Positions 30,751-54,019 of a DNA stretch of 64,000 nt are shown here, piece after piece. A model generated the notes under the pieces. It was given only the letters and a program-made list of their open reading frames with translations. It was not told the origin of the DNA and ran no database searches. Location of the stretch: the IMG/VR virus record IMGVR_UViG_3300033141_003979, positions 1-64,000 of that record, one strand, 5' to 3'. Each line of letters begins with the position of its first letter. The first letter of the stretch is position 1. A program made the position numbers and the translations under genes. Source of the DNA: a virus.

Positions 30751-31193
30751 GTTGGATATCCAGTCCCTCTTTCTTCAATCTCTTCAGCATCAATTTCAAG
30801 ATATTCATCTCTTTCATTCTTATTCACTACATCATGAATACGAAATAAACGCCCCTTAACTGTAGATCCCTGCTCTAAGAATAAGTGATAATCAGATTTA
30901 AGCAAGCCTAAATCTTCCATAGAATCAAATCCTATACCAAAATCCCTGGCATAAGCCCTGCCAAGGGAAGAAATTGCCAAGCGTCTAACTTTGAAAACAT
31001 GGGTGGAATTCTCATTGATCTGCTCTCCGCGGATATATCTTGATCCAGACCCTTTGAACCTCATAGGCCTGAGTCCCATCCAAACAGTCATCAAGACATC
31101 AAAGCCCCAATCAAATCCACCATCATCATTGGCAACCTGTGTTGGCTTCCCTATCTGCACTCGTCTGCTGAGGTCTGGTGCAAGCCAGGTCAT
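30747..31193 (-). CDS. Head-tail adaptor / head closure protein
   Basis: L.RRVQI..P....DDGG, TVW, GRLFRI..V, YLEI.AEE. Confidence 0.8.
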   Translation of the reverse strand: MTWLAPDLSRRVQIGKPTQVANDDGGFDWGFDVLMTVWMGLRPMRFKGSGSRYIRGEQINENSTHVFKVRRLAISSLGRAYARDFGIGFDSMEDLGLLKSDYHLFLEQGSTVKGRLFRIHDVVNKNERDEYLEIDAEEIEERGTGYPT

Positions 31194-32899
31194 TAATTTG
31201 CCACCTCCTGCAAAAATTCATCAAATCGATCACGAGTCTTTCCCCAATGGGGAACTTCATCTGCCTCTGTCCATCCCCGGCAACTCCGCTCAGAACGAAA
31301 CTGTGACTTGTCCATGCGTCTGCGTGTGAGCGACCTTGAGTGCCTTATATCTATACTCGGGCAGTCGGCAAAATAAACTTTGTATTTGCCCTTCCTCATT
31401 TCTTTTGGTAGCCCTTTCGGGGGCGAAAAACCAAGGCTTCCTTTGAATCCATGTTCTTCAACAAATTTAACCTTCTTTCCGTAATGATCTATCAGAAAAT
31501 CCCTATAAGCACACAAGAGAGACGGAACATTCCTATGATAGAATACAGCCTTACCTGTATCCGCACATACCGACCATACAGCCCGGTCATAGTAAAAGAC
31601 ATCTTTCTTGGGTGGGGTGAAATCAAAATGAGCTGGATGATAAAGCAAGTCATGCTCAATCATAAAAATGACATCTGCTTCACTCTCTTTCAAGCCCATA
31701 AGAATTTGTTTATACATGGACAAGACGGACCTCTCTAAATCCATCACTATATTCTTACCAAAATCAATCGGCTTCTGAGATACTGAGACAATAGGGAACT
31801 TATGTGTTTCCATACACTTTACAATCTGTTTTTGACAGGTTGAAAGAATAGCCTCTCCCGCATGATTATCTGTATAATAAACTAGACCTTTTTTCAATCT
31901 ATTTGTAGATATGCCCTTTGACTTTTCATGATAATCAAACTGATCCCAACCAGGCAAAGGGCTGAATCTATCGATCATCCATGACAAGGGATATTTGGCC
32001 TTTGACCAAGAATTTCCTTTCCACATCTTCTGTGAATAGTCCCTTGCCTTCCTTACATCCTTCCCCCTCAAAGGATAAGGAAATCCAAAGTCTCCACCTT
32101 GAGTTCTAAACATATGAGCAAACCAAGTATTCTTGTTTATTACCTGCCTGCCACCGCTAAGCCAACTTTTGCATGAAATTTCTGTCCCCATCTGACCCCA
32201 AGAACCATGCCCTTCATCTAAACCCCCCAGATCCCAGTAGCGTTCTCTGTGCATCATCCAGCAGGCGCCTATTGCAGTCATCTGATCAGTGATCTTCCCT
32301 TTAGCCCAATCCCTACGGGAGTGAGAGTACTTGTGCTTGATTGCAGGCATGTCTTTTCCATACTTTGATAAGTGATTCCTGTCAAAGTAAGAAAATTTCA
32401 TATCCTTATCAAACCACATATAATCTGACTTCCTCCCCTTGCGGCGTTGCCAGATCATGATCATTTCAAATCCAGTTTGACTTTCACACTTGCTGCATTG
32501 AGTTGGCTTTGGTCCCTGGTAAGTTTTATTCCCACATGACTGACATTTCCAATCAAAAGCGTGTAGATTATACATGCGGGGAACCATTGTCCAATCATAC
32601 TTACAAGCAGTTATAAGCTTAACATCAAAGCCCTTGTCAAAGGCACAATGGGCATCACACTTCATAATGAACTTGGCCTGTGACAGTTTGGCGGCCTCAT
32701 TCGTCGCTGCCCTCTGACCTATCGATTCCCCATGATAAATCAATTTCACTCTTGGATGATCCTTGACAGCCGGCTTAGGCCAACTACCATCACAAACAGA
32801 GATGACTTCTGTATTACCCTCGACATTTTCAAGGATGTTCTCAATAGTTTGGGCTAAGAACATTTCATTTCGACTAGGGATAAGCACTGAGAGATCCAT
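31193..32899 (-). CDS. Two-domain glycosyltransferase: DxH-type GT-A (polypeptide GalNAc-T-like) plus a second GT-A-like domain
   Basis: SVLIPSRNE, KCDAHC, LGGLDEG..SWG....EISCKSWLSGG, AHMFR; inserted CxxC..CxxC ribbon. Second domain LVYYTDN..PIVSVSQKP..EHD.LY. Confidence 0.85.
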   Translation of the reverse strand: MDLSVLIPSRNEMFLAQTIENILENVEGNTEVISVCDGSWPKPAVKDHPRVKLIYHGESIGQRAATNEAAKLSQAKFIMKCDAHCAFDKGFDVKLITACKYDWTMVPRMYNLHAFDWKCQSCGNKTYQGPKPTQCSKCESQTGFEMIMIWQRRKGRKSDYMWFDKDMKFSYFDRNHLSKYGKDMPAIKHKYSHSRRDWAKGKITDQMTAIGACWMMHRERYWDLGGLDEGHGSWGQMGTEISCKSWLSGGRQVINKNTWFAHMFRTQGGDFGFPYPLRGKDVRKARDYSQKMWKGNSWSKAKYPLSWMIDRFSPLPGWDQFDYHEKSKGISTNRLKKGLVYYTDNHAGEAILSTCQKQIVKCMETHKFPIVSVSQKPIDFGKNIVMDLERSVLSMYKQILMGLKESEADVIFMIEHDLLYHPAHFDFTPPKKDVFYYDRAVWSVCADTGKAVFYHRNVPSLLCAYRDFLIDHYGKKVKFVEEHGFKGSLGFSPPKGLPKEMRKGKYKVYFADCPSIDIRHSRSLTRRRMDKSQFRSERSCRGWTEADEVPHWGKTRDRFDEFLQEVAN

Positions 32900-33009
32900 T
32901 ATCTATATTCTATATCCTTTTTCAAGAGAACTCCTGTTAGAATTGATGTCAGGCAGTTTAAATAGGGTATTTAAAGGGTATCTTAAAGTGTTTTCCATAT
33001 TTTATCTCC

Positions 33010-33294
33010 CTAATTGATAGTCACTTCTTTTTCTTCCGTAACAACCCAATCCTCTCCAGCGATGTCGCCGGTGGAAACAATCAAGGGGTGAAACTTTTTG
33101 TCCTCTTCCTTATAAACCATCAATTGATTGTCCATGATGGCAAACCTTGCATTTCTTTCTTCCCACTCTAGTCGTCTGACATGCCTGCCTTTCAATACTT
33201 CATTCATTGCATCCCCAAAATTCATCTGCGGTATCTCAGGAATATCCGCTGCCGTAGGTGACTGTTTGCCACCAGTGTTGTCTCTTTCATTCAT
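33010..33294 (-). CDS. DUF2829 / Tad2-like protein
   Basis: MNFGDA...KG..VRR.EW and S.GDI.GEDW pattern. Confidence 0.6.
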   Translation of the reverse strand: MNERDNTGGKQSPTAADIPEIPQMNFGDAMNEVLKGRHVRRLEWEERNARFAIMDNQLMVYKEEDKKFHPLIVSTGDIAGEDWVVTEEKEVTIN

Positions 33295-33311
33295 CTCTCT
33301 TTTCCTCCTGT

Positions 33312-33911
33312 TTAAAATTCATACCCTAGTAATTCAACGTCCTTACGGTAAACATTATATACAATATCTATACACTCGTCATCGTAGTAATCACGGTATG
33401 GTCCATGTTGAGAACGGTTCTTGTGAGGAAGAACTGGACTGCAATCTATTGCAGAAGCTATTATCTCCCAATCTTTTTTTATGTTTTCTATCCTTGCCAC
33501 AAAATCAACAAAAACTTGTCCTTTGAAATAAACCCTTGGATACTGATGCTCAAAATGCGGATCACATAAAATCCCTTTATCACAAAAGGTAGTTTTCATA
33601 AAATGTTGAAAAGTCTCTCCTTTGCCAATGCATGGCCTGCCCGCTTGCTGCAAAGCATAAAAGGCTGATACCATCCTGTCCCAAGGATTTCTAACAATAG
33701 TAAATTTGAATATCTTATTGACATCAGTAATAGCCAATCTATAAGTCCATAAATTCCGACAATCTCTATAAGTCATTGCCCTGAGTTTTAACAAATCCCT
33801 GTAGACAGAATGGAGGCAACACTTACGAATACCAAAAAATATGAACTTCCCTTCAGTATCAAGAACCACGGGATGCAATTGTCTAATGTGTTTTAGAAGA
33901 GTTTTCATCAA
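33312..33911 (-). CDS. Sulfotransferase family 2 protein
   Basis: FKFTIVRNPWDRMVSAF (3'-phosphate-binding motif), HFEHQ, DFVARIE, Y..DVELLGYEF. Confidence 0.85.
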   Translation of the reverse strand: MMKTLLKHIRQLHPVVLDTEGKFIFFGIRKCCLHSVYRDLLKLRAMTYRDCRNLWTYRLAITDVNKIFKFTIVRNPWDRMVSAFYALQQAGRPCIGKGETFQHFMKTTFCDKGILCDPHFEHQYPRVYFKGQVFVDFVARIENIKKDWEIIASAIDCSPVLPHKNRSQHGPYRDYYDDECIDIVYNVYRKDVELLGYEF

Positions 33912-33936
33912 ATTCTATTAATTAGCCTTATATTTT

Positions 33937-34587
33937 TTACAAACATAACTCATCAAATAACTTTTCTGCTTTTCCCCATAATTGCAATCTATTAAATCTC
34001 TCTCTCATGCCATGCATATAAGGATGCAACCCATCATCATGATCAACACTAATTACAAAATATTTAGTTCTAAAAACTCCAAATCCAAAAGATCTAAAAG
34101 GAATTGGGGGACATCTCAAATTTTCTGTATCAATCCACATTGGCCTGTTAGCCATTATCTTATCTAAGATTTTAAGCAAATATTCACGGTTTGATATTAT
34201 TGCACCAACAAATCCCGCACGCTTTCTAGCAAAGATCGGAATTCTTGAATCAAACATACATACTCTTCTATTATAGTACACTGTATTTTGCTCCCTGTTA
34301 TAAGGGCGAAATTGAAAATGTTCTTTGGGATATAATGAATCCGCCTCTGCAAATGCAACATAAGGAGTATCTGCGTTTTCTACTCCAATAAATATCTGCC
34401 TAAATATATTATGGCTAGATCGCCCTACATCTCCAACACAAATATTTTTCCCGAAACTTAACTCTTTCTGTGATACAGATATAAGAGGTAACTCTTCAAT
34501 AACTAACAAAAGATTTTTTCTGATTTTTTCTGCAAAAGATTCCTTTTCCTTATTGGCCGTATAATAAATAATAGTAAGATCTCTCAT
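33937..34587 (-). CDS. GT-A-like protein, paralogous to the C-terminal domain of 31193-32899
   Basis: LTIIYYTAN, PLISVSQK..FGKNI, AEADSLYP..HF.F.P. Confidence 0.7.
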   Translation of the reverse strand: MRDLTIIYYTANKEKESFAEKIRKNLLLVIEELPLISVSQKELSFGKNICVGDVGRSSHNIFRQIFIGVENADTPYVAFAEADSLYPKEHFQFRPYNREQNTVYYNRRVCMFDSRIPIFARKRAGFVGAIISNREYLLKILDKIMANRPMWIDTENLRCPPIPFRSFGFGVFRTKYFVISVDHDDGLHPYMHGMRERFNRLQLWGKAEKLFDELCL

Positions 34588-34610
34588 ATTCTTATTTTAA
34601 CAAAAAGCTA

Positions 34611-35315
34611 TCACCTTGGACAAATTGAACAATAATCATATTTGTTTCTTCCGCCAGGCATTGACAAATCTTTTACGAATTTAATGTGCTTTTTGCCAAA
34701 CCAATATTGTCTTAAATCAATTTCCGGGAAAGACCCAAACCCAGAAATACCATTAAGATCCTCACAACATAAACAATACCGACCCTCATAATTTATTATT
34801 AATCTTTTTACAAGCGGTTGTTTGCATTTCAGATCATTTAATGATATTGCTTCTGGATGAAAATGAGTCTTTATATGCCATCCTTTTATCTGCACTTTGG
34901 TTTTTTTAAATAAAAATCTTACAGCATTTTTTTTATTATAAGGCCTTCTATCATAAAGAGAAATAATAATTTTATTCAATATCTTGTCCAACCTACCAGC
35001 CATTTCGTCAGTTAAAAAATCTCCATTAGTCACCAGATATATAGTTTTAATCCCATTCTCTTTAAGTAATTTTATTATATCAACAATTCTTGGGTCCATC
35101 AAGGGTTCATTATAATGAGAAAGACAGACACTAGAATTAAAATCTAGTTCAATATATTGCTTTACAAACTCCTCAATCATCTCCATAGACATAAAATTTA
35201 GTTCAAACCGAGATTTAACTGCTTCCCTATCAAGGTAAGAATTTCTAATGCAGGTCGGGCAAAATCGATTACACATCGAACTCGTCTCTAAAACTATTAC
35301 AGGAGGCCTCTTCAT
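34611..35315 (-). CDS. Radical SAM protein with SPASM/twitch-like C-terminus
   Basis: CNRFCPTC, NEPLMDP, TNG, C..P...LCCED...CSIC. Confidence 0.9.
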   Translation of the reverse strand: MKRPPVIVLETSSMCNRFCPTCIRNSYLDREAVKSRFELNFMSMEMIEEFVKQYIELDFNSSVCLSHYNEPLMDPRIVDIIKLLKENGIKTIYLVTNGDFLTDEMAGRLDKILNKIIISLYDRRPYNKKNAVRFLFKKTKVQIKGWHIKTHFHPEAISLNDLKCKQPLVKRLIINYEGRYCLCCEDLNGISGFGSFPEIDLRQYWFGKKHIKFVKDLSMPGGRNKYDYCSICPR

Positions 35316-35319
35316 TCTC

Positions 35320-37314
35320 TTATTTCTTTACCCAAAAAAATGATGGAGAAGATTCATCTGTCACAAATAAATCCTTAATCCCATGAACCCGCACATAAAT
35401 ATTTACTGCATCAACAACACCTCCAACAGCTCCTCTAGTTGAAACCCAATTAAAATAATCATGCCCTGAAATTATCCCTCCTATACGAACCTTCTTTGAC
35501 CATTCAATAAGATCTTGCATTACATAATCAAATGTATGATTCCCATCAATATAAACAAAATCAAGTGATTCTGGTTCTACTTCTTTGATAGCATCCATAC
35601 TTTTCTTTACAATAAATTGAACATCATAAGGTTTAAGTATTTTCTTAGCATGATTATAAAAAGAATTATGGTTTACATCAGAAATTTCAACTTCATCTTC
35701 TCCATAACTAATATATGGATCAACAAGTTTTAATGATAAACCCGGAATATGTTTGCATATTGCTAATGCATTTATCCCACGCTTCACCCCTATTTCTGCT
35801 CCGTACTTAAATCCAAGTTCATTAAACAATGAATACAAATATCTTCTTCTATACTTCCTCACCTTTATTGGTGATATTGCCTTCCTTGATATACTACCTC
35901 GCTTTCTAAAAATAAATCGTAAATTATTCTCTCCCTCTGCCATCCCCCAATGCCGTTCAGTATCCATTACAATCCTCTCTAACCAGTGAACTTTGTATTT
36001 TTCATCAAGCACCGCCTTAATAAAAAAGAAATCTCCTGCATTTTGACGACCAAAACTTTTAATATGTTTTTGAAATACTTCATTCGAAACACAGATATTT
36101 CCACAAGCAATCCTCCCTCCAACAGGAATATGGGTTTCCCAAACATCTTTTTTTGGGTAAATAACATTTTTTATCAACTTCTTAACCATAACAACATCAA
36201 CATGAGAAGCTGATACAAGTTCTTTAACTGAAGCTACAAAATCTTTGTCTATTATGACAGAATCGTCATCTACTAAATAAACATACCTCCCTTTAACTTT
36301 GCTTCGATTAACATAAAATTGTTTATTCGCCCATCCAATACCTCTCCCTATATCATCTACTATAAATATGTGTTCAAAATCTTTATCTGTTTGAGCATTA
36401 ATAGAATCAATGCATTTCTGTAATGCTTTAGGTCTCTTGTAACATCTTGTAACAAAAGACATAAATGGAATTTCGGGAGCTTGTTTTTGTTCTGCCTGTT
36501 TATTTATATCTTTCACCATTGTATTCTCCCAAGAAGGCACCGGAGCAAATTTATCTACCAACCACTGTAAGGAGTGTTTATATCCATGACTATTTCCCGA
36601 CCAAAACTTCAAAGCAAACTCCGCAGATTTTCGCTTCTCCCCCCTGACATCTCTATAAAGTCCCGTGTCCTTCGCCCAATGGGCATACCAAGTATTGCGA
36701 TTGAGCACATACCGGCCACCAGAAAGCCAAGTCTTCAAACATACTTCCTGAGCTTCTTTGCCCATCGCCCCGTAGTTGACTTCATCCAATCCTCCAAGTT
36801 CCCAAAACCTTTCTCTATGCATGAACCAACAGGAGCCTTGAGAGGTCATCAAATCAACTATTGTCTGTCCTACTACCCGATCAGCATATTCATGCCAGTC
36901 CTTTCCTTTAAGATCCGTCTGCCTGATATACTGAAACTCATAACTTTTGTCTTCTCTTTCCCATAATTTAACATTCAATCTATATCTAACCGGAACTACA
37001 GTCCAATCATATTCACAGTTTTCAATTAACTTTATATCAAATCCCTCATCAAAAGAACAATGAGCATCACATTTCATCAAATACTTGCCCTTAGCAATCC
37101 TTGCCCCGGCATTTATCGCTTGTCGCATTCCTTCTGTTTCAGAGAAATGGACTAATGTAACATTCGGGAAGTCTCTTACCGGCGGATCAGGCCAGTAGCC
37201 ATCCAACATAACAATAACTTCAACAGCTCCTTTGGCCTTAACCAAAAGATCATCAATTGTCCTTTGCAAATATGGATCATTCCGCGCCGGTATTATGACA
37301 GACGTTATTTCCAT
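35320..37314 (-). CDS. Tri-domain protein: DxH-type GT-A, second GT2 domain, class I methyltransferase
   Basis: Probable start 37314. SVIIPARN, KCDAHC, LGGLDE..WLSGG..YAH; VYLVDDD; GAEIGV..G, DFVYIDGNH, GGIISGHDY. Confidence 0.87.
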   Translation of the reverse strand: MEITSVIIPARNDPYLQRTIDDLLVKAKGAVEVIVMLDGYWPDPPVRDFPNVTLVHFSETEGMRQAINAGARIAKGKYLMKCDAHCSFDEGFDIKLIENCEYDWTVVPVRYRLNVKLWEREDKSYEFQYIRQTDLKGKDWHEYADRVVGQTIVDLMTSQGSCWFMHRERFWELGGLDEVNYGAMGKEAQEVCLKTWLSGGRYVLNRNTWYAHWAKDTGLYRDVRGEKRKSAEFALKFWSGNSHGYKHSLQWLVDKFAPVPSWENTMVKDINKQAEQKQAPEIPFMSFVTRCYKRPKALQKCIDSINAQTDKDFEHIFIVDDIGRGIGWANKQFYVNRSKVKGRYVYLVDDDSVIIDKDFVASVKELVSASHVDVVMVKKLIKNVIYPKKDVWETHIPVGGRIACGNICVSNEVFQKHIKSFGRQNAGDFFFIKAVLDEKYKVHWLERIVMDTERHWGMAEGENNLRFIFRKRGSISRKAISPIKVRKYRRRYLYSLFNELGFKYGAEIGVKRGINALAICKHIPGLSLKLVDPYISYGEDEVEISDVNHNSFYNHAKKILKPYDVQFIVKKSMDAIKEVEPESLDFVYIDGNHTFDYVMQDLIEWSKKVRIGGIISGHDYFNWVSTRGAVGGVVDAVNIYVRVHGIKDLFVTDESSPSFFWVKK

Positions 37315-37613
37315 TATCTCCACTTCGGATGTACGGTAAAATTTATAGTCCTGCAAAGCCCCTTAAAACCACCATCTGGAAACTCAAAGTACCCCTGAAC
37401 ATAATATTCCCCTGCAACATCCAGATCACCGGCCCCTGTAACATATCTCAAATACTTTTCTTCATATACTGTAGAAGCCCATTCTACTTCAACCCCATTC
37501 TTGAGAACTTTCATTGAATAAACAGTGGCAGTATCAAGGGTAACATCTGCATTTACCTTTATTGTTATTTCGACATTTTCATCATCTACATATATTCTGT
37601 CATCAATATTCAT
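37314..37613 (-). CDS. Small beta-rich virion-associated protein
   Basis: YVT..GDLDVAGEY.VQ motif; coupled to both neighbours. Confidence 0.6.
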   Translation of the reverse strand: MNIDDRIYVDDENVEITIKVNADVTLDTATVYSMKVLKNGVEVEWASTVYEEKYLRYVTGAGDLDVAGEYYVQGYFEFPDGGFKGLCRTINFTVHPKWR

Positions 37614-39166
37614 ATTCCCCTCGATTCAAGAGCCATTCCTATTTCAAAGGACATACTTGTTTTCAAAGAAGTTTCCAAACTTATACTCTTCAATATTCCC
37701 ATCGACGGCGATGGCGATGCAGATATTGAAGGGCTCACTGAAGCTGAAATTGAAGTGCTCGGACTCAGTGATGGCGATAAACTCGGTGATAAACTCTGTG
37801 AAACCGAAGGACTCACACTTAACGATATGCTTGCTGATGGAGAAATTGAAGCTGAGATTGATGCCGAAAGGCTCGGGCTCAAACTTGCTGATGGGCTAAT
37901 TGATGGACTAATTGACAGGCTCACCGATGGAGACAGACTTGCCGATGGACTGATACTTGGGCTGATACTTGGGCTGATACTTGGAGAAATACTTGGACTC
38001 AACGACGCCGAAGGTGAAATCGACGGGCTCAGGCTCTGTGAAATACTTAGTGATATACTTGGGCTCTCTGAAGCAGACGGACTCACTGATGCTGATAGAG
38101 ACAAGCTTATTGACAGACTTATGCTTGGAGAAATGCTTGCCGAAGAGCTGACAGACGGCGAAATTGATAAGCTGATTGAAGGGCTGATTGATAGTGAAAT
38201 AGATGGTGAAATTGATGGGCTAACAGATGGGGAAACGCTAGCAGATAAACTTGACGAAATGGATGAACTTAAACTAGCAGACGGTGACGGCGATGCAGAT
38301 ATTGAAGGGCTCAATGAAGCTGAAGGACTAACAGAAGACGATGGAGATGGAGAAATCGAAGGACTAATTGATGGTGACAAACTTGCTGATGGGCTAATAG
38401 ACGCCGAGATCGATGGACTGATTGAAAGACTGATTGAAGGTGATATGCTTGGGCTCGCTGATGAAGAAATTGATGAAGAAATTGATGGACTAACAGAAGC
38501 CGAAATTGATGGACTGATCGACGGGCTTATGCTCGCCGACGGGCTAACAGATGGGGAAACTGATAGTGAAATGCTTGGACTAATTGAAGGCGATGGAGTA
38601 TGCAATTCCATAGTCCAATCATCTATATCCAACTGAATATCATCAATACCAATAATAAGAGTTTCTAGGTTTTCATCAGAGTTGGTAATACCAGGCTGAA
38701 GTGCTTTAGGTATTCTTGTTGCTGTAACCAATGGTCCAATTTCCTCGATTGTATTTCCCTCAGCATTAAATTCAGCAACAAGATTAGGAATATCATATTT
38801 ATTTTCTAAGCGATACCATGTATTTTCATTAATAGTAAACGTAGAAGTAACATGAAAGTCCCCGCCTTCGGCGTCATCATAAAACTCAGATCTAAGCTTG
38901 AATACCCCACCATCATTTTCACAAACAAAATAAGTTACAGGATCTCCATTTACATCAACTTGCTTGCCAAAATGAAAAGAGTTTCCTATACTGAGAACCC
39001 CAGTATAAAGCTTAAACTCCAAATACACATAAGATGTAAGTGTCGATACACGTATAGCTTGACGACTCCCAGCAGGCTCAGTTGCAGGCAAAGATATTTC
39101 TAAGTAATCTCCCCCCTGATTGCTTAATGGCGCAGTCCTGCAATTTGCATTGTAAGTAACAGCCAT
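37610..39166 (-). CDS. Ser/Pro-repeat protein with N-terminal beta-sandwich (LamG-like) domain
   Basis: Probable start 39166 (TAATG). TWYRLE..Y and IDDI motifs; about 300-aa S-x-S-P tract. Confidence 0.8.
   Translation of the reverse strand: MAVTYNANCRTAPLSNQGGDYLEISLPATEPAGSRQAIRVSTLTSYVYLEFKLYTGVLSIGNSFHFGKQVDVNGDPVTYFVCENDGGVFKLRSEFYDDAEGGDFHVTSTFTINENTWYRLENKYDIPNLVAEFNAEGNTIEEIGPLVTATRIPKALQPGITNSDENLETLIIGIDDIQLDIDDWTMELHTPSPSISPSISLSVSPSVSPSASISPSISPSISASVSPSISSSISSSASPSISPSISLSISPSISASISPSASLSPSISPSISPSPSSSVSPSASLSPSISASPSPSASLSSSISSSLSASVSPSVSPSISPSISLSISPSISLSISPSVSSSASISPSISLSISLSLSASVSPSASESPSISLSISQSLSPSISPSASLSPSISPSISPSISPSISPSASLSPSVSLSISPSISPSASLSPSLSASISASISPSASISLSVSPSVSQSLSPSLSPSLSPSTSISASVSPSISASPSPSMGILKSISLETSLKTSMSFEIGMALESRGI
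37700..38598 (-). repeat. Degenerate 12-nt coding repeat, (S-x-S-P)n
   Basis: Unit AGY-NNN-TCN-CCN, e.g. AGT ATT TCA CCA. Confidence 0.9.
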
Positions 39167-42100
39167 TATGGTATATCTTCCCAATAAGATTGATCTGTGT
39201 TATCACTATCCCAATCATCGTCAACCGCAGCATCGGGATCAAAAGTTTCACTAATGACGCGAGATTCAAAAGAAAAATCCATCGTCATTAGACCCATGAA
39301 CTCTGGATCTGGAGGTTCATCTGGAATCCCATCACTCTCAGTTGCATTATTAACAACAGCTCCAAGTCTTTCGCAAATCTCAACCTTCCATTTTTCTTCA
39401 CTATTTAGAATCTGAATATGAGCGAATGAAATCAAACGGATTGGATCTGATAAGTAATCATGATTCGCTGCCATGCCAGCATGATAATAGGACCGGTATC
39501 CACCAACCCTATACTGCCTACAACTAATAATCGAAGCATGTCTACCTAGTGGGGATGCACCAATATTAGGCCACCCATCATCTGCATGACTACCATCATC
39601 GAGGAACCCACAGTGACGATCACCTCCAAGTCCTATACCATTATGGGCTAACCATTGACGCACATTATACTCCCTAGCCGCACATCTCCGCCAAAAATCT
39701 GGCTTATAGATCTGAATAGTGGTTGATTCAGCAGGGATAACATCATCGACCTCTACTTTCTTTTCCCCAGCGTTCCAATACCAAACCTGTTCATTTCCAT
39801 CTATCTCATCTGCACTGAATACTTCCTCCATGACCGTTCTTGAAGCGGTGATAAGAGAGTTATCACGAGCTACAGCCCCAGGCTTTAAAGCACCCCCATC
39901 TGAATTCAAAAAGGGTTTGCGTGACCTCATCCTGGTGCCATCTACATCGTCAATGGCTTCCCATTGCGTATCCCCAACTCCTATTTCATCTAACAGTTCA
40001 ATCCAGAAACACATCCCGTCATAATCGCACCATTTATCACCCTGCCCGGCCTCTCCGTGAAAAATGGGTGTTTCTGATACAAGACAATAGTAATCAATAT
40101 TGGGGTCTGTTCGATCTGTAAATATATCTTCAACAAACGTCCTGAAGATATGACCTGCATTTATAGCCTCTTCTGGAGTACTATGTATTGAACTACCAGA
40201 TTCGTAGAAGTACATGAAGTGATTAGCCTCAACGGTATCATCATTACAAGTCTCCCAAGCAATTTTGACATAAGTATCTGTGACTTCTTCGACTAGAAAA
40301 TGCCCAACAACATCACCTTCACCATCAGCAGCCGTTCTAACCTCAACCATATCCCATCTATTGACAAAGGAAGTAAGGTCGCCTGTGTAGTTAAATATAT
40401 TATGAGTGTCAACAGAATCAATTTCCATTGAATCCTGATCATCTACTGTATTACCACCAACCAACGGCTTACTCAGTTGATTGATCACCAGCCCATAAGC
40501 AATAGTATCTAATTTACACCCCCCGAAAGTCCAATTTGGATCTCGCTTGTGGCGAATGTCAATAACGATAAACCTGATATTATCCATATCAAAGGTGTGG
40601 CAAAGTGAAGCTCGTTGAACAAGGTATCTAATATTTTCAGTTGTAGAGAAATCTTTTCCATCTGATAATGCTTGACAAAAATGGATAGTAGTTCCGCCTA
40701 TATATTTTACAAATGAATATTCACAAACAGACTCATCTGTTTCGTCCAAATACCTAATACATTGACCAGGATAAAGACCATACTTTGAAACTGTTGGAAA
40801 TCCGTAACTACCGTCTATTGTAGCCTCTGCGCTACTATCATCACCAATTACAACTTCATCATCTGACGGATAAGAGCCAGAAGTGTATTCAATTACAAGC
40901 TGATATGTACCTGTCCCATCCTGTCTTTCGTCGTGCAGTAATGTACCAACCCCATCTATCCCCCATGTCACGCCCTCTCCCTGTGTTAAATTCCCTGTAT
41001 AAGCATCATAAGTAATTTGAAACTCAGGTGGACTTGTATCAACTAAGGTAACATCAGATCCATCTGTATGTGCCCCCTCATAATTATTCCCCATATGAAG
41101 ATCTGGAAGCGGAGTCATTTCTTTGTAAACTCTCAGCGCAGTAGGAACCATATAAGCGTTTAAGGCATCGTCATAATTGCCACCACCTACACAATTAGCG
41201 TTATTTACAAGAAAATCATGGTCTGAAAATATATGGGCAGCAGGATACTTATTATATAATTCAAACTGTTGCCAGTAATTAGATAGCTGTGAACCTCGCC
41301 TTTCATAGACTATATTTCGTATAACTTGTGCTTCGTCTACAGTAGCTATCTCCGGCGATATACTCCATTCATCTCCAAGCTTCCAAACAAGATCAGGAGT
41401 TTTAGCAGACATTGAGGTAAAGACATTGTGGTCTTGCTCCTGGTGATGTTCGTCAGCACCAGCAGCAACAACCATGTCACTTCGAGTACCTGGAGCTTGG
41501 AATGTCTTACAACTTGGAAGAGTACTCCAGTAATAGGCACTTGCCCCACCCTCAAGTTCATACGCCGATTGCCAGCACCCATTCTTTTGTTCAACAAGAA
41601 TATCATAATAGTATGTTTTATTTGCAGTGAGACCTGTTATGGGAACGATTGCCGTGAAGTCTTTGGAATAGCCCTTTGGATCTGTAGCGGTTATTGCCGT
41701 GGCAGAACTTGTGTCGGTGTCTCCTGAATTGGTTTTTACGTCTCCCTCTACCGTACCATATCGTATTCTTACACTACTGGCTTCACTAATTCGTAGCCAT
41801 ATTCTAAGTTCTGTCGAAGACACACAGGCAACTAGCGGCTCATGTGTGACAAAGGCATCTCCTGTTGCCCCACTTATCACTTCTGCATAACAATCAGATA
41901 TTCTATATCCAGAAAAATCTTGCGCACTAGCTCGTATATATCCATAAGCTTCTTTTATTTGCGCCCACGACCAAGCACCATCCCCTTCTGGGTCATTTAC
42001 GGCAAGGAAATAAAAATCTGCCCATACCGCATCTCCAACTTCCCCTCCTGGACTGAACCCACTTGATTTCGGGGTGCTTGCTACTCCAAGACCTTCCTTG

Positions 42101-44415: not shown

Positions 44416-44424
44416 AGTATCCTC

Positions 44425-45564
44425 CTAACACCGTACCAATTCCATATCTGTTTCAAAAGCCATACTTGTTGTCAAAGACGATTCAAAAGCAATGATCTTC
44501 AATATCCTTGAAGTTGCCGGCGAAGGACTCGGCGAAGCCGACACGCTCAAGGATATTGAAGGGCTAATACTTAGCGAAATAGACGGGGAAATGCTCAGAG
44601 ATATTGATGTTGAAGGAGACAGAGAAATGCTTGCACTTGGCGATATGCTCGAACTTGGACTGACTGATGGGCTAATTGATAGACTGATACTAGGTGACAG
44701 GCTCAAGGAAATAGAAGCAGAAGGAGAGACCGAAGGGCTAATACTTAATGATATACTTGCTGATGGAGAAACCGAAGCAGATATTGATAAGCTTACCGAT
44801 GGAGAAATACTTGCACTCAAACTAGCAGACGGGCTTATACTTGCACTCGGACTGAGTGATGGAGAAACACTCGCACTAAACGATGCTGATGGAGAAATAC
44901 TTGCACTCGGACTCACAGACGGCGAAATGCTTGCGCTCAGACTTGCCGATGAAGAAACTGATGGACTGATTGATGCTGATGGACTGACCGAGGCAGAAAT
45001 ACTTGGTGAAATGCTTAGCGATATACTTGCCGATGGACTGATCGATGGACTAATACTTGCCGATGGAGAAATCGAAGGGCTTATGCTCAAACTTATGCTT
45101 GCGCTTAATGATGGAGATATACTAGCAGATGGAGATACTGAAGCTGATGGACTGATTCCGGTGATGCGTAATACCACATCCTGAACATATTCAATAGGGG
45201 CAGGACTCGGACTTGGTGATGGTGATGGGGATATTGAAAGGCTCACTGAAGCTGAAAGAGATGGAGAAAGACTTGCCGATGGGCTGATTGATGGACTAAT
45301 ACTTGGTGAAATACTAGGACTGATTGACGCCGAAATGCTCGGGCTAACACTTGAAGATATTGAAGGGCTGAGGCTTGCACTTGGTGAAATGCTTGCTGAA
45401 ATGCTTGGGCTGATTGATGGGCTCAAACTAGCTGACGGACTGATACCAGAGATACGTAATACAACATCCTGAACATACTCGGTTGTTGCTTCATCTCTCG
45501 GAATCCCTCTAGTTGGAACTCCACGTCCTGGTAACCCTCTTTTTGGTACTCCTCTAGTCCCCAT
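44425..45564 (-). CDS. Almost wholly Ser/Pro-repeat (mucin-like) protein
   Basis: N-terminal 4x RG(V/L/I)P, 2x [10 protein letters not shown], long S-x-S-P tracts. Confidence 0.8.
44520..45445 (-). repeat. (S-x-S-P)n coding repeat
   Basis: Two tracts separated by an [10 protein letters not shown] module. Confidence 0.9.
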
Positions 45565-45573
45565 ACTTAACCC

Positions 45574-47421
45574 TTATAAAGTAGAAGTCATTTTAACTTG
45601 AACATATCCCAAAGATACAAATGGTATAGTATAATTATTCCATCCAGCTCCTTCACAGGCTACTTTTGTTGCTCCGTGTCTATAATCCATATCCACGTCA
45701 TCCCCTGTAGGATCATAATTATTTTGCAATAATGTCACAGTAAAGGCGCCTGTGTTAACTACTTCAGACACCATATTTTCCCCTGCATTCAATTCAAGCC
45801 GTTCAGCATCACCAGCATTCGCTATTACCCCAGTCCCTGTCCAATGCCAAGCAAATGTACGTACATTTGTCTCAGTCACAGCTGTAACATGTCCCCAACA
45901 AGTATCCCCAGGTATTGCAGGTGAAGGAGATGGGGATATTGAAGGGCTAACTGAAGGCGATAAAGATGGACTCAATGACGGTGATATACTAGGTGAAATG
46001 CTCGGGCTGATTGAGGCTGAAGGACTATATGATGCAGAGATACTTAGTGAAATGCTCAAGCTTATTGATGGGCTTATACTCGCACTTGGACTGATTGAAG
46101 GACTTAGGCTTGCACTCAGACTCGGCGATAAAGATGGTGAAATTGAAGCTGAAGGAGTAGATGGAGAATATGATGGGCTTATACTTGCCGATGGACTATA
46201 TGATGCCGATGGAGACGAAGAAATCGAAGCCGAAATCGAAGCCGAAGGGGTATCTGGTGATGGACTTGGTGATGGTGAAATCGATGGACTAATTGATGGT
46301 GAAATTGACAAACTAATTGATGGTGAAATGCTTGCAGATGGGCTTAATGATGGACTGATTGATGCCGACAATGACGGGCTTTCTTCCACAAACTCACTTG
46401 CCCCTACATCCCATCTAGCATCCGTACCAGCAGGCCTGGCATTTCCTTCTATACTAAAAGCATAAAGTGGATCAGGGGTAGTAAAGAAATTCATAGGGTT
46501 CCATGTGCCAGAAACATCATTAACTGGCGACATGCCGCAATTGCCCTCACCTAAATTATCGACACCATCCCTAGTAGATAGACTGGCCGTAGCTAAGTAA
46601 TCAGCATCTAGTGAGGCGTCCAAATCCAAACTGTTATCCCATGCAGTAGGAATTCCTCCAGCATCTAAGTCCGCTGTATCATCGTCAGCAGCGTTCCAAT
46701 CCGAAGGTACATCAATATCAACAGCAGGAAATACATCTCCCCCTATGTCCATTCCATAGCAACTAAAAATAATACCTGTGCCATCTGTTAGAGAAGAATA
46801 AAATCCTGCACCACAATCTGCCCCAGTACAACAAATACAGCCCATTGTATATCCTGCGGCCGGAGAGAATCTAAAAGCAAGATCCTCATGCCCATAGGAG
46901 ATACAAGCATAGGCCATACTGTCTTCACCAAACATCCGAAACCCCTGCGGATTTCCACCAGAAGAAACTCCATCATAGGCAATACAATGTATAAAAAACA
47001 CGAAGTCTGCGTCTTCACATCTGAAAATATGAGCACCTGTCGAACCAGTATAACTAGCACTTATTTTAACAATTCTACTATAGAAATCCTTAACTTCAAA
47101 AACAAAAACATTTGCTCCTGTATAAACAAACGTAGCTCCAGTTGCTACAGTACCAGCAAAAGGAGTAGCACAACTTGGTGAGGATTGAATCTTTCTATAG
47201 TGTGTTGCATCTACAATAGCATCTTGGAGTGCGACAGAATCATCATGTACTTGGCTATCATAGCAGTCGAGCACAAGAATACCAAGACCGGTGATATCTA
47301 CATCTGTATCAGCTTCCCAAGTGCCTAAAACACTATAATCTGGATCTCCAGCGCCAGGCAACGAACCGTTGCCTCCAGAATCATAGGTTCAAAGATATGG
47401 TGCTTGATCCCAACAAGCCAT
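45574..47421 (-). CDS. Beta-helix-like protein with S/P tract; true start uncertain (ATG 47421 with in-frame TGA, or TTG 47361)
   Basis: ORF 45574-47361. In-frame ATG at 47421 is coupled to the upstream stop, with TGA at 47391-47389. WDVGASEF motif precedes the S/P tract. Confidence 0.75.
45920..46380 (-). repeat. (S-x-S-P)n coding repeat
   Basis: About 150-aa Ser/Pro tract. Confidence 0.9.
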
Positions 47422-48119
47422 TAGCTAATAAGCCCCTTTTTTGGTTCTAACATATTCAGCCCATCAAAAGCGCTAACAATGCGACCCTTAAGTTTATCCC
47501 AGAAATCAGTCTTACCAAGAGATCTGGACACCGCAGGAGTATAAACATCGTGCCTGTCAAACATCCTTACGGTGTTGACCCCTAGTGTGTCTAAATCAGC
47601 AAGGGGCACACAGAACCTACGTTTTTTAATAATATCCGTTGGATTCGCACCAATATCCCACGATCCCGTTATATCGTAGTAAGGCTCGCATAAGGCTTCT
47701 ATCTTTGGACGATCTAAGTCGGTCACGGGGACAATTAAAAAATGCCTTCTTTCTAGATTGGTCCACCCATGACCCTCTGCTTTATGAGCAATAATATCTC
47801 CGGGTCGTGGCCTTTTGTCGGTCTTCATATCTTCGTGAACAGAATATAGGTTAGGGTCAAATCCTGTTGGATAATCAATACTTTTGCTAACAAGTTTATT
47901 TATAAGGACAGAACCAGCTTTAGCAATATCTGGCGTTAATTTGTTATAGGGGCCGTTCGCATAGCCTTTGCCATCAGCGCATGGAAAGTTCTTGTCGTAA
48001 TAATATGGCTCGCCATTCCAGCCATGAGCGACAACAGGGAAATGATCTGTCAGGCTTTTCTCCTTCATAAGATAACGATTTTTATAGTAAGCAAATAAAG
48101 CTAATTCAAAGTTAGCCAT
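47421..48119 (-). CDS. Hypothetical protein
   Basis: 232-aa ORF in operon orientation with GAGG RBS. Confidence 0.7.
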   Translation of the reverse strand: MANFELALFAYYKNRYLMKEKSLTDHFPVVAHGWNGEPYYYDKNFPCADGKGYANGPYNKLTPDIAKAGSVLINKLVSKSIDYPTGFDPNLYSVHEDMKTDKRPRPGDIIAHKAEGHGWTNLERRHFLIVPVTDLDRPKIEALCEPYYDITGSWDIGANPTDIIKKRRFCVPLADLDTLGVNTVRMFDRHDVYTPAVSRSLGKTDFWDKLKGRIVSAFDGLNMLEPKKGLIS

Positions 48120-48138
48120 CAGTCCTCTCTTCTATAAA

Positions 48139-51100
48139 TTAAGGAGTCAAAATCATAACAACTGTATCTTCATAATCTGCCCCTAACAAAGCCGTCAAAT
48201 TCTGAATATAAAACATGTCCTTGTAATCATAGTCTTCAAATTTCCAAGGAAGATAATTTACCATATCTTCAAACAATTCATCTTGAATGTAAATTTTGGC
48301 TTGAAACATATCGGCAGCTAAAGCAGGCGAACTACTATCTATTTCATTAGATCCAACAATTACAGCATGACTAAAATCACCCATGTACCACCAAGGATTA
48401 TACTTTTCGACTGAGGCCATAAAGTCACTGACGATATCAGACGCATTACTCTGTATAGTAGCCCCTAGTTCTGGGATTATTGGGTCAAACCCATGTAGCC
48501 TGAATGGGGCTTTGGCTACCCACGAAGAATAGGACTGTGTACTATCGATATCGTGTACTTGCCTAAAATCATTAGTTGCTGTCAGATTACCCTCAGCAGG
48601 CATCGGAGAAAGCCCTTGACTATATCCCCAATCTTCCCAATCTGTATAGTTATCGTCTGTACCAGGATGCGCTGCTCTTGCAAAATTAACCCAACCAGTA
48701 GCCGCATCATTACAAGTTGTAAACCAAGCAGTAATCATATCATCATAGTAGCCCTGAACCTCTGCTTCCGTGGCCGCATCTCCCCGATAATTTGCCATTT
48801 CTATCATCGCATACATAGCAGCAACTTGCTTGACGGGGTGGAAATTACCAGACGTCCAAGTAACCCACTCAAAGAAGCCACTATCAGCTTCCCAGGTATG
48901 GTTTGCGTCATTGTCAAATAAAGCGTACATAGTATCGACTACAAAATCCCAGACATCTCCACCCCCTAATGCCTCATCCAGCTTGGCCCAGTCATCGCTT
49001 CTTTGGCAGTATTTATAAAGCCCATAAATTCTATCAGCTATATCATTCCTATTTGACCAACGCCAGCGGCGATAAGGAGATGTATTGTTACAAGTAGTTT
49101 CAAGGGAATGAGTATCATAATCAAGACAACCCCAGACATAGGCATATAAGTTACTGTCTAAAATATAGGTATCAACCAAATTACTCAAATATAATATTGT
49201 ATTTGCCTTCAGGGGCTCTTCAAGATATGGGAGTGCATCTGAAAGTGTCCTTAAAACTTCTCCATCTTTCCAAAATACTTCCTCGGGTGCAGTTGAACTT
49301 TGAGCCCAAAACATTTGCGTAGCCGGATCTAAGTGTGCATCATCATCGACTATATCCTGTACCACTGCGTTAAGAAGTGTTTTCACATTATTTCTTGACA
49401 AACCTAAGTCTGGCGGTGCCACAAACAAATCTAGAGGATCATAGGTATTGCTTGCTTCTGGTGATTCATGAGTCAAGCAGAACAGATGCCCCCAGCTTAC
49501 CCAAAAAACTTCATTTCCGGCAACCACTACAGGGCTAACAGAATCATTTGCTCCCCCGATACCGCCAGTTGTCGAACATCCGAAGCGAGTAAAGAATTTA
49601 TGCATTCCATCTGGATAAATAGTGGTTGGTGTACTGTCTATCAAAAGAGGTTTTCTGTGAGTACCGAATCCATCCCCATAAACAGTTGTGTTAAGTGCCG
49701 GTGTCTCAATATCATAGTATCCTATATCTTCACTTAGAGTCTGATAAAACCTATCATTTACCAGCGTGTAACGACCTATCTCATCTGGCCTCATTACAAA
49801 CGTAGGACTATCATCTTCATCAGCAATTTGAATGCAACTTCCATCATCTAAATCTACCTTAACAAGCCTGTCATCATGATCTAGTGGATCTGTGTAAGCC
49901 CCACCATAGGGCACAAAATAGGCATATCCATCATTACTGATTACTGGCGTGTAAAGCCCCCAGTAACCAAGATAAAGCGGAGTATAGGCTGATCCGCTCC
50001 ACAAATCTGTTCCGTCTGTAGCGTTGAAATAAAATAACGGTCTACGCTCTCCATAAGCTGTATAATATGTATTGTACTCAGAAAGGACAGTTGCAATAGC
50101 CTTATACCCGACAGGCTCAGTATCGTATAGAAGTGCGTTTGGTGCATTTTCCCCCACAAAGGAGTAATCATTTCCTGGCTTGCGTGTGACAAATATAACT
50201 ACTTTAGTGCCTCCGTCACCTTTACCATAAACAGCCATTGTGCGTTTTGTGAATACCCCCTTCATTGTAGCTGTCCATAACTCCGTACCATTTTCCCTCA
50301 AGGCATAAGCGGTATTTGCCCCTGACTGAAAAAATATCGCTGATTCTATTGGAGTCGTTTCTACTTCACCAATAGCAGCCGTACACGATATAGGGCTATC
50401 GGCTGGGTAAGTCCATAAAAGAACCCCAGTAGAAAAGTCATAAGCTTTAAAGTTGCCACCAATATTCCCTACAAAGACCTTGTTGTTATGCACCGCAGGA
50501 GTAACCCAAAGGGAGTCCCCCGTGTCAGCACTCCATATAAGATTACCAGCATCACTCAGACAATAGAGATAACCATCTGTCGAGGCAGCTAGAATACGCA
50601 GATTATTATCTTTGTCACGATCTACTGTTAATGCACTAGGGAGAGCCCCTCCACAGGGGTAAGACCAATCAGTTGTCCCGTCGGATGTATCTAAAGCGTA
50701 AACTTTACCATTCATCAAACCAATATAAACTACATCACCAACAACTACTGGTTCTGCTTCAATCTCTATTCTCTCACCCAAGAATCTGCGCCACCTAAGA
50801 TTTAAGACTCCACTATCTAATTCAAGATCATAAGGGACAAAATAATGCCTATCCATCGAACCACCACGAGTGGGCCACTCTGGTAGATAGATTTTGTAGG
50901 CTACATCATCTGATGTAGCGGCGATGGGAATAGTTATTAGCGCATCTCCATTACTTTCAATAACGTCTGTGGAATTAATGAGGCCCGTATCTGTGTCCCA
51001 CTCCTCTAATATAAAATCAGTATCCGCCATACCTGTCATGGTAAAAGTAAGGTTATTAGGATTTGTTGGGGTTATTCCAGCAGAACAATCAACAGCCCCT

Positions 51101-53319: not shown

Positions 53320-53323
53320 ATCT

Positions 53324-54019
53324 CTAATCCGTCAAATCAAGTGTACTTTCTTCTGCCCTATCTCCATCCGATCCCACATTAAGTTGGATCAGCATATTTT
53401 TCCCGTCTCCAATATTCCTATAAGTAATATCCCAATCCTCTGCCCCATTCTTTACCACACTTGTCTTGCCTGCAATGAAGGCAGAAAAAAGCCTCATCAA
53501 ATCACTGTGAGAATATGTACCTTCAATATCTTCATCCATAAATGCATCTACTACAGTTGCTGTAGTGTCAAGAAGGTCGGCATCCACAGCATCCCCTCCG
53601 AAAGTGCCATCCCCTGTATGAGAAGCACGATTAGCATCCCATATCAATGTCGATGGTGCAGTATTATAATCAGGAGCAGTTGTCCATGTCGCACGGGGGC
53701 AACCATAACATTGAATGTTTCCTGTTGAACTTTCTGGCATCATTGCTACATAATCGCCATTAGTTTCATCTGCGTCTATATCAAAAGCATAATACCCATC
53801 TTCTAATTCTGTGGGATTTGCATCAGTCACAGCAACCCCTGCCACTCCATCAATACTAACTTCTGCTGTGATCTGTGCCGCATCTCCTGCTTTTGCCGTA
53901 TGGTCTGTTTCATCAAAGCAAAATACTACCCACTTTTGACTGGCTACATTCTTTTCAAGAGCGAAAGAATGGGAGCAAAATGCAAAGATTAAAAACAATG
54001 CAAAAATTATTCTCTTCAT
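53324..54019 (-). CDS. Hypothetical protein with signal peptide
   Basis: MKRIIFALFLIFAFCSHSFA; ANPTELEDGYY.F. Confidence 0.7.
   Translation of the reverse strand: MKRIIFALFLIFAFCSHSFALEKNVASQKWVVFCFDETDHTAKAGDAAQITAEVSIDGVAGVAVTDANPTELEDGYYAFDIDADETNGDYVAMMPESSTGNIQCYGCPRATWTTAPDYNTAPSTLIWDANRASHTGDGTFGGDAVDADLLDTTATVVDAFMDEDIEGTYSHSDLMRLFSAFIAGKTSVVKNGAEDWDITYRNIGDGKNMLIQLNVGSDGDRAEESTLDLTD

Follow-up and report, generated by a model that had tools for sequence, protein, structure and literature searches.

We analyzed a 64,000-nucleotide stretch of viral DNA (the window), which covers positions 1 to 64,000 of IMG/VR record IMGVR_UViG_3300033141_003979 and forms the start of a complete virus record of 109,770 bp with direct terminal repeats. 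The phage is a myovirus that encodes a portal, a prohead protease, an HK97-type capsid (58577-60049), a sheath (26605-28155), a tape measure and a Mu-type baseplate. About 23 kb of DNA lies between its head-tail connector and head-completion genes. We propose that this block is a cassette of fiber and glycosylation genes inserted at the connector/head-completion junction, in which enzymes resembling the mucin-type polypeptide N-acetylgalactosamine transferases (GalNAc-Ts) of family GT27 would O-glycosylate four proteins with long serine tracts. We put the probability of this reading, every step of which is deduced, at roughly 0.6. A sequence-only reading of the window had suggested mucin-like, O-glycosylated appendages, possibly capped with nonulosonates. 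Our results support the module of glycosyltransferases (GTs) and tracts, lend less weight to a virion appendage and argue against the capping.

In the proposed mechanism, the structural operon would express four soluble proteins late in infection, each carrying a long (Ser-x)n stalk between a globular head and a short C-terminal peptide. Two soluble GT-A paralogues with a Mn-binding DxH motif and a Gal/GalNAc-T-type motif would add the first sugar to the stalk Ser residues in the host cytoplasm, and three further domains with a nucleotide-sugar-transferase fold would lengthen the glycan. In the window phage, a methyltransferase that uses S-adenosylmethionine (SAM) and a sulfotransferase of the 3'-phosphoadenosine-5'-phosphosulfate (PAPS) type may then decorate the glycan. 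The products would be stiff, extended, protease-resistant, mucin-like stalks. They would probably sit at the neck together with a Gp80-like fiber protein and a small immunoglobulin (Ig)-like protein, p99, and display their N-terminal heads. A nonulosonate/Maf gene arm elsewhere in the window would be a separate system with a different target.

GalNAc-transferase-like enzymes and alternating serine tracts

The GT-A domain of the lead enzyme, GT568, contains a DxH motif and an inserted CxxC...CxxC zinc ribbon. Pfam assigns the glycosyltransferase parts of GT568 and of a second enzyme, GT678, to Glycos_transf_2 (GT2) only. When a profile of 21 GT568 relatives was compared with PDB sequences, the best matches were GalNAc-T1 (mouse and human) and GalNAc-T2 (E 1e-8), and the alignment spans the DAHC (DxH) and WG..E..W..GG..H.FR stretches of GalNAc-T1. 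Residues D82, A83, H84, W234, G235, E240, W246, G249, G250, H262 and R265 are invariant in the 21 family members, as are the four cysteines of the zinc ribbon. We take the His downstream of the Gal/GalNAc-T motif (GHVFR) to be the third metal ligand.

The structural comparisons agree with the profile search. Foldseek searches with an AlphaFold2 (AF2) model of GT568 (predicted local distance difference test score, pLDDT, 88) returned GalNAc-Ts as the best ~50 matches, with K4 chondroitin polymerase as the one exception (best E 5e-15). An exhaustive VIA alignment against 48,161 chains placed GalNAc-T1 at Z 26.0 (root-mean-square deviation 2.8 A over 267 aa) and Toxoplasma TgGalNAc-T3 at Z 24.0, and other GT-A enzymes in the same search scored Z <=18.2. 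Residues 334-568 of GT568 resemble nucleotidyl- and glycosyl-transferase folds (IspD, GlmU; Z ~12). The N-terminal domain of GT678 is a paralogue of GT568 residues 4-320 (39% identity, E 3e-71) that has the same DxH motif and no zinc ribbon. The five GT-type domains counted in the sequence-only reading thus correspond to two GT27-like GT-A domains, the C-terminal domain of GT568, the stand-alone protein GT216 and the second GT2 domain of GT678. Neither GT568 nor GT678 contains a hydrophobic 19-mer, and the insert enzymes as a group lack hydrophobic segments; both lead enzymes are predicted to be soluble. On the evidence of sequence and modeled fold, they appear to be the closest relatives of the mucin-type polypeptide GalNAc-Ts. 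Sequence identity to the eukaryotic enzymes is 15-20%. Lacking both a lectin domain and a membrane anchor, GT568 falls outside GT27 as defined, and its transferase activity is a prediction.

The presumed acceptors are four insert proteins, which we call tract proteins A to D. Together they contain 422 Ser in 871 tract residues, in line with the hundreds of Ser reported before. Ser/Pro tracts are indeed present; a closer description than the (S-x-S-P)n given first is a strictly alternating (S-x)n in which x is P, I, L, A or V and Pro recurs every 4-6 residues. Tract protein C is 41% Ser overall. Both TCN and AGY codons are used for Ser, the 49 copies of the peptide SPSIS are encoded by 43 distinct DNA sequences, and Tandem Repeats Finder detects weak repeats only. 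Because the codons are scrambled in this way, the alternation is taken to be selected in the protein. The open reading frames (ORFs) that the tracts contain on the plus strand do not extend beyond the tracts and are shadows of the repeat.

Tract proteins recur across the enzyme family. In 160 distinct examples Ser makes up 50.6% and Pro 16.7%, with 26,865 SxS as against 3,292 SS. Typically, these proteins begin with a globular N-terminal domain of ~200 aa, continue into a long tract and end in a short C-terminal piece (median 26 aa), and the domains that flank the tracts fall into 130 sequence clusters. Recognizable heads include Laminin_G_3 (9), Gly_rich_2 (6), F5/8-type-C (3) and beta-helix (2) domains, which are of the adhesin or receptor-binding type. 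The head of tract protein D is common to 8 other tract proteins and ends in a WD(I/V)GA-type motif, which was also observed in locus L001. The long C-terminal part of tract protein B gives a weak PhoD/purple-acid-phosphatase-like fn3 signal; a PDB sequence search with this protein was empty, and a PhoD-like lead in the Atlas scored 0.77, below a meaningful score. The C-terminal pieces often contain two or three short beta-strand-like repeats. The unit is ~10 aa long and occurs 2-3 times (for example SLETSLKTSMSFE, or the KP.ITFT type) at 37610-37680 and 44425-44500 in the window and also in L001, L039, L058, L077 and L100. These repeats are candidate trimerization or docking elements.

Two gene starts deserve mention. 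The likely ATG start of tract protein A overlaps the upstream stop codon. Upstream of tract protein D, an in-frame ATG (MACWDQAPYL; 47332-47424, minus strand) shares nucleotides with the preceding stop, and a single TGA lies between this ATG and the ORF, an arrangement that could reflect a weak TTG start, read-through or recoding.

We then asked how consistently enzymes and tracts occur together. The enzyme family is large, with more than 6,300 word-index matches and 361 clusters (50% identity) at E <=1e-30, and it is found on 513 IMG/VR contigs and 124 contigs of species-representative metagenome-assembled genomes (MAGs). Pairing was scored in 81 viral loci (+/-10 kb), 80 MAG loci and 32 control loci. 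Tracts of at least 30 aa were present in 64/81 viral and 53/80 MAG loci, as against 2/32 controls, which were loci of related phages and not a random sample (Fisher p 4e-13 for viral loci versus controls). For tracts of at least 100 aa the counts were 59/81, 46/80 and 0/32. Where the full flanks were available, 21/21 viral and 26/28 MAG loci contained a tract. The tract ORFs were co-oriented with the enzyme gene in 166/167 cases, at a median distance of ~1-2 kb, and a GT678-type paralogue was found in 74/81 viral and 69/80 MAG loci. The window itself holds a GT568-type and a GT678-type enzyme with at least one co-oriented (Ser-x)n protein within ~10 kb, the combination by which we define the cassette.

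The pairing also held when the search began from the tracts. A TCN-only DNA pattern for SPSxSPSxS selected 120 viral loci; most were chance matches, and five contained true alternating tracts. Three of these five had the enzymes in the fetched stretch, a fourth, from a complete genome of 43 kb, encoded the enzyme outside that stretch (E 3e-226), and the fifth was an uninformative 6.9-kb fragment. Thus, all four informative records carry the enzyme (4/4), and the enzymes were found in 0/115 pattern loci without a tract. A complete 64.5-kb relative (G032), in which the connector and head-completion genes are adjacent, lacks tracts and insert genes alike and encodes no relative of GT568. The random distribution of tracts and GTs that would have counted against the sequence-only reading was therefore not observed. 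Because the enzymes resemble GalNAc-Ts, the pairing runs both ways and both partners are absent from relatives that lack the insert, we infer, with good support, that the GTs and Ser tracts form one functional module predicted to O-glycosylate the phage's own tract proteins.

A different explanation for the same genes is that the Ser-x tracts are plain, unglycosylated flexible linkers and that the GTs have another acceptor, such as a polysaccharide, phage DNA or glycans of the host envelope. Bacterial glycanases do contain polyserine linkers (PMC2386152), and GT2-type enzymes, the only class that Pfam recognizes here, commonly make polysaccharides. This idea does not account for the two-way pairing and joint loss of enzymes and tracts. 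Moreover, GT27 enzymes, whose acceptors are proteins, come first in both the sequence and the fold comparisons and score 6-8 Z above the polysaccharide GT2s, and the phage enzymes are soluble, without membrane segments. The known phage DNA glucosyltransferases have other folds. We consider the linker explanation improbable.

The enzymes might instead glycosylate other virion proteins, such as capsid or tail proteins, while the tract proteins merely travel with the cassette. Mycobacteriophage GTs do modify capsid and tail-tube proteins, as PMC12363180 states with reference to Freeman et al. 2023. In the whole genome of the window phage, however, Ser tracts are found only in the four insert proteins and in one 94-aa ORF outside the window. 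The capsid, sheath and other structural ORFs have none in a scan that sees tracts and not scattered glycosylation sites. If the tract proteins were bystanders, their co-orientation with the enzyme genes and their close spacing would also be left unexplained. We regard this explanation as very improbable and retain the model in which the tract proteins are the substrates.

Insertion site and proposed virion attachment

The features of the insert and its surroundings are collected in Table 1.

Table 1. Coordinates and properties of the insert genes, the two flanking neck genes and the nonulosonate/Maf arm.
Feature	Position	Strand	Description
Nonulosonate genes (Pse/Leg type), Maf, tetratricopeptide repeat (TPR) protein	1240-16174	+	Putative lineage-wide system separate from the insert
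Head-completion protein	30747-31193	-	PF05521, E 1.8e-12; downstream boundary of insert; adjoins connector in relatives
GT568, lead enzyme	31193-32899	-	GT27-like GT-A domain, aa 1-320; nucleotide-sugar-transferase-fold C-domain, aa 334-568
Tad2-like/DUF2829 protein, 94 aa	33010-33294	-	PF11195, E 1.9e-6
Sulfotransferase	33312-33911	-	Sulfotransfer_2, carbohydrate-sulfotransferase family; PF03567, E 2.9e-11; accessory
GT216	33937-34587	-	Stand-alone nucleotide-diphospho-sugar-transferase fold (GT-A-like), homologous to GT568 C-domain
Radical SAM/SPASM protein	34611-35315	-	PF04055, E 2e-11; PF13186 weak; accessory; GC 0.318
GT678	35320-37356	-	GT27-like GT-A domain, second GT2 domain, Methyltransf_24; PF00535 in two stretches, PF13578
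p99	37314-37613	-	99-aa Ig-like beta-sandwich; AF2 pLDDT 85
Tract protein A	37610-39184	-	192-aa head; (S-x)n tract aa 193-503 (311 aa, 157 Ser); ~20-aa C-terminal peptide
Tract protein B, 1610 aa	39166-43998	-	214-aa head; tract aa 215-295 (37 Ser); long C-terminal part
Gp80 homologue, 137 aa	44002-44415	-	Homologue of podophage GP4 fiber I, a virion protein; PF23140, E 7.2e-21; phrog_240 head protein, E 2.6e-14
Tract protein C	44425-45564	-	379 aa; short basic N-terminus; tracts aa 35-125 and 133-355 (42 and 109 Ser); ~25-aa beta-strand-like C-terminal peptide
Tract protein D, 595 aa	45574-47361	-	320-aa head; tract aa 321-485 (77 Ser); 110-aa C-terminal domain
p232, 232 aa	47421-48119	-	No Pfam, PHROGs or NCBIfam match; one homologue, L041
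p1726, 1726 aa	48139-53319	-	Hydrophobic aa 4-29; DUF5060 Ig-like (PF16586); PQQ-type beta-propeller (PF13360, PF13570)
p231, 231 aa	53324-54019	-	Hydrophobic segment aa 3-22, signal-peptide-like; no Pfam, weak PHROG match
Head-tail connector, gp6-like	54024-54689	-	PF05135, E 6.7e-5; upstream boundary of insert; homologues 62-64% identical in L005-L009

Pfam assigns both neck genes, which confirms the ~23-kb separation noted from the sequence. In eight IMG/VR contigs of related phages, with connectors 47-64% identical (L005, L006, L008, L010, L011, L013/L014, L016/L017), they lie side by side, so that the expectation that they are normally neighbors is borne out as well. We therefore read the 23 kb as an insertion relative to kin. 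It comprises 15 ORFs, all on the minus strand, with intergenic gaps of -43 to +110 nt that are mostly <=25 nt, and the start of the head-completion gene overlaps the GT568 stop by 1 nt. The insert is thus co-oriented, as first described, and tightly packed. Consensus promoter and terminator sites in the window show no excess over shuffled sequence. In the related phage contig L007 (9098-17425), other cargo lies behind the connector, including a 757-aa pectate-lyase-like protein. Given the adjacency in kin and the different cargo in L007, the connector junction appears to be a hot spot for fiber or spike cargo. No close relative of the phage was found among GenBank phages; the top capsid match is Azospirillum phage Cd, at 39.5% identity.

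Two further features of the structural region were noted. Between the capsid region and the connector are three tandem paralogues of 216-246 aa and 11-12% Ser (55167-57175, minus strand), possible head decoration proteins of which relatives carry one or two copies. A 282-aa ORF between the sheath and the tail-terminator-side genes (28139-28987, minus strand) has an N-terminus that resembles a GIY-YIG homing endonuclease by eye.

Several observations bear on where the tract proteins act. The gp80-like gene sits between tract genes, and its product matches PDB entry 8jou_a, annotated as a 'virion-associated phage protein', over its full length (E 0.0017). Homologues of p99 were found only in loci of the enzyme family when an iterative hidden Markov model search was run over the fetched loci (L012, L047, L059, L124, L161 and L299; seven matches, one a duplicate contig); a word-index search yielded a single relative. 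The gene order of L047 matches that of the window: tract, tract, p99, GT678, GT216, Tad2-like, GT568, head-completion and tail genes. Podophage GP4 and Anabaena phage A-1(L) illustrate how small adaptors can join fibers to the neck (PMC11445570, PMC10966104). The structural-operon position, the Gp80/8jou homologue, the lectin-like and beta-helix heads and the lack of signal peptides lead us to regard neck or head fibers as the most likely, and a plausible, role for the tract proteins.

The cassette is also found outside recognizable phage operons. The MAG bins that contain the enzyme family are mostly Patescibacteria/DPANN, and many of these are likely mis-binned phage contigs. Two Patescibacteria chromosomes (L186 and L187) carry the cassette in a cellular setting, with sugar-nucleotide genes around it and TatC beside it. 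The order in these loci (L186:18998-20434, L187:16245-17638) is a giant Ser-tract protein, one or two 66-70-aa ORFs and then TatC, and the two tract proteins have a common C-terminal motif of ~40 aa. The TatC neighborhood hints at Tat export of a cytoplasmically modified tract protein.

This arrangement invites another interpretation, in which the glycosylated Ser-stalk proteins are not virion parts and act in or on the infected cell, in surface display, matrix or release, as in the Patescibacteria cassettes. The cellular setting of L186 and L187 is in keeping with it, as are the signal-peptide-like N-termini of p231 and p1726 and the lack of a match between the tract proteins and any known virion protein. 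The tract proteins themselves have no N-terminal hydrophobic segment that could serve as a signal peptide, which speaks against a role in or on the cell, and the phage cassettes are embedded, co-oriented, in head, neck and tail operons, with a Gp80-like virion fiber gene between the tract genes. We consider a non-virion role unlikely.

Some of the evidence weighs against our proposal of glycosylated neck fibers and accounts for the caution with which we hold it. Because the cassette occurs in Patescibacteria chromosomes among cellular genes, it does not appear to be intrinsically a virion system. We infer virion attachment from the operon position and the gp80 homologue, among other context. 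Searches of PHROGs (heads) and PDB gave no match for the tract proteins. Foldseek returned weak, generic Ig matches for p99, some of them to phage baseplate or connector proteins (E >=2e-3), and a PDB sequence search with this protein gave only noise. PHROGs likewise contained no match for p99, p232, p1726 or GT216. The proteins p231 and p1726, the only insert proteins with signal-peptide-like N-termini and a feature absent from the sequence-only reading, look secreted. Their position directly behind the connector is odd, since proteins of this kind would be expected to leave by export and not to enter particles. By itself, a GT27-like fold is no proof of a protein acceptor. The controls drawn from related phages and the four records of the tract-first test count on the same side. 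Finally, a tblastn search with GT568 against 50,697 GenBank phage records (E 1e-5) gave no match, which leaves the enzyme family without a cultured example or host to consult.

Accessory enzymes and the nonulosonate/Maf arm

The remaining enzymes of the insert differ in how widely they are distributed. A methyltransferase (Methyltransf_24), a sulfotransferase and a radical SAM enzyme had been predicted from the sequence, and all three families were found. GT216 homologues are present in 30/81 viral and 41/80 MAG loci; its Atlas structure gives template modeling (TM) scores of 0.65-0.76 to GT2 clusters, and the nearest clusters are viral 'glycosyltransferase' entries. Homologues of the sulfotransferase occur in only 2/161 other loci (L039 and L118). 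The radical SAM gene has no homologue in the 161 other loci, and its product gave only sub-threshold maturase matches in NCBIfam. Sulfation and radical SAM chemistry therefore appear to be rare add-ons, with sulfation probably specific to the window phage.

The Tad2-like gene recurs directly upstream of the lead GT in 11/81 viral and 5/80 MAG loci. It may encode an anti-Thoeris sponge that rides along with the cassette or a nucleotide(-sugar)-binding partner of it. The genes from the sulfotransferase to p99 (33312-37613; sulfotransferase, GT216, radical SAM, GT678 and p99) have a GC content of 32-37%; the genome stands at 39.6% and the insert genes on either side at 42-45%. This lower GC content suggests that 33312-37613 is a separately acquired sub-block.

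The plus-strand arm encodes CTP_transf_3 (cytidylyltransferase), Gfo/Idh/MocA, DegT, NeuB, BNR, PseB-like, GNAT, Maf/PseD-like and TPR proteins, which confirms the nonulosonate pathway and Maf noted earlier. The Maf protein is PseD-like in NCBIfam (E 8.9e-27) and Maf/MptE-like. The arm ends convergently against distal tail-fiber genes (16529-18367), and the adjacent tail fiber is a candidate Maf target. Free-standing nucleases interrupt the arm (DUF559-type, 864-1253 and 11173-12219). In L319-L321, Maf lies within a 970-aa ORF and there is no separate TPR gene; this ORF is possibly a Maf-TPR fusion.

We considered whether this arm caps the Ser-tract O-glycans, so that both arms would form one system, as the sequence-only reading had proposed. 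Both are present in one genome, enzymes of the Maf family put nonulosonates on flagellin Ser/Thr, and PseB-like (8/81) and DegT (10/81) genes lie near the enzyme in some viral loci. The distribution of the arm speaks against capping. It is found in the same order in L318-L322 and in the complete G032, all of which lack the insert and the enzyme family, and Maf above cut-off was found in 0/22 other phage records with the enzyme family. Among the viral loci, neither NeuB nor Maf occurs within 10 kb of the enzyme. The expected co-occurrence of maf with the tract cassette is thus contradicted in both directions. Because relatives that lack the insert have the arm and the 22 enzyme-bearing records have no Maf above cut-off, the nonulosonate/Maf arm appears to be a second glycosylation system, independent of the Ser-tract cassette. 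There is little chance, in our estimate, that it caps the tract glycans.

Relation to known glycosylation systems

We compared the cassette with characterized glycosylation systems. The closest enzymes are the eukaryotic mucin-type GT27 transferases (GalNAc-T1, 8v9q/1xhb; GalNAc-T2, 4d0z; Toxoplasma GalNAc-T3, 8uhv). Like them, GT568 combines a GT-A fold with a DxH motif and with a Gal/GalNAc-T-type motif that is followed by a His, and the presumed acceptors are long Ser/Pro-rich tracts in stalk-like proteins. GT568 differs in that it has a second nucleotide-sugar-transferase-fold domain and a zinc ribbon instead of a ricin-type lectin domain. The phage enzymes are predicted to be soluble and cytoplasmic, whereas GT27 enzymes are type II Golgi membrane proteins. 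The phage tracts are also strictly alternating Ser-x, with almost no Thr.

A second comparison is with the serine-rich repeat proteins (SRRPs) of Gram-positive bacteria (GspB, Fap1 and PsrP, with GtfA/GtfB and accessory Sec) and the SD-repeat proteins modified by SdgA/SdgB. Here too, dedicated GTs are encoded beside proteins with Ser-dipeptide repeats, modification is cytoplasmic (as we propose for the phage), and a binding head is joined to a stalk. The GTs of those systems are of GT-B/GT4 types. In a Pfam search of all insert proteins and an N-terminal scan, we found no GtfA/GtfB, no SecA2/SecY2/Asp, no LPXTG motif and no signal peptide on the tract proteins. In staphylococcal SD repeats, every second residue is a modified Ser (SdgA/SdgB; PMC3794999).

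Phages that glycosylate their own particles provide a third comparison. The mycobacteriophages Che8, Corndog and Myrna encode GTs near their structural genes that modify virion proteins (Freeman et al. 2023, as cited in PMC12363180 and PMC12691614). The window phage shares phage-encoded GTs near structural genes and, we propose, the use of its own virion proteins as substrates. The mycobacteriophage substrates are capsid and tail-tube proteins, whereas the proposed substrates here are separate fiber-like proteins whose tracts extend over hundreds of residues. No GenBank phage, Che8, Corndog and Myrna included, gave a tblastn match to GT568 at E 1e-5, and the hosts here are uncultured.

Two other systems resemble parts of the window. 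The neck-fiber modules of the Anabaena myophage A-1(L) (PMC10966104) and of podophage GP4, with fibers on a 15-mer Ig-like adaptor (PMC11445570), combine connector or neck fiber genes, a small Ig-like adaptor and distal carbohydrate-binding domains. The window likewise encodes a member of the Gp80 family and p99, which is Ig-like and 99 aa long. Folded bead chains or trimers make up the A-1(L) and GP4 fibers, which lack Ser tracts and come without glycosylation enzymes, and the neck attachment in our phage is one that we propose from context. In flagellin glycosylation by Maf/PseD, the likeness is to the plus-strand arm, with its Pse/Leg-type genes and a Maf/MptE-like protein with a TPR partner; the difference is that the arm is phage-borne. 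It also appears evolutionarily independent of the Ser-tract cassette. The published literature, within a limited coverage of subscription journals, gave no description of the cassette, nor of GT27-like enzymes in phages or Patescibacteria.

More tentatively, the family as a whole may represent a mucin-type system outside eukaryotes, in uncultured phages and ultra-small bacteria, in which GT27-like enzymes densely O-glycosylate (Ser-x)n stalks. In the window phage the products would be methylated, sulfated neck fibers, and the family could be a prokaryotic/viral sister or source of the eukaryotic GalNAc-Ts. We regard this broader proposal as possible and somewhat doubtful.

The window adds to the family picture a cassette carried as cargo at the connector/head-completion junction, a rare sulfotransferase and radical SAM enzyme, and a second, seemingly independent Maf/nonulosonate system. 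If our reading is correct, a large and unstudied group of environmental phages builds mucin-like glycoprotein fibers with enzymes akin to those that start mucin glycosylation in animals, and virion glycosylation would reach far beyond the actinobacteriophages. The enzymes would be soluble, cytoplasmic, peptide-directed O-glycosyltransferases with simple repeat acceptors, which would make them attractive for bacterial glycoengineering. The finding would also raise the question of GT27 kinship across viruses, Patescibacteria and eukaryotes.

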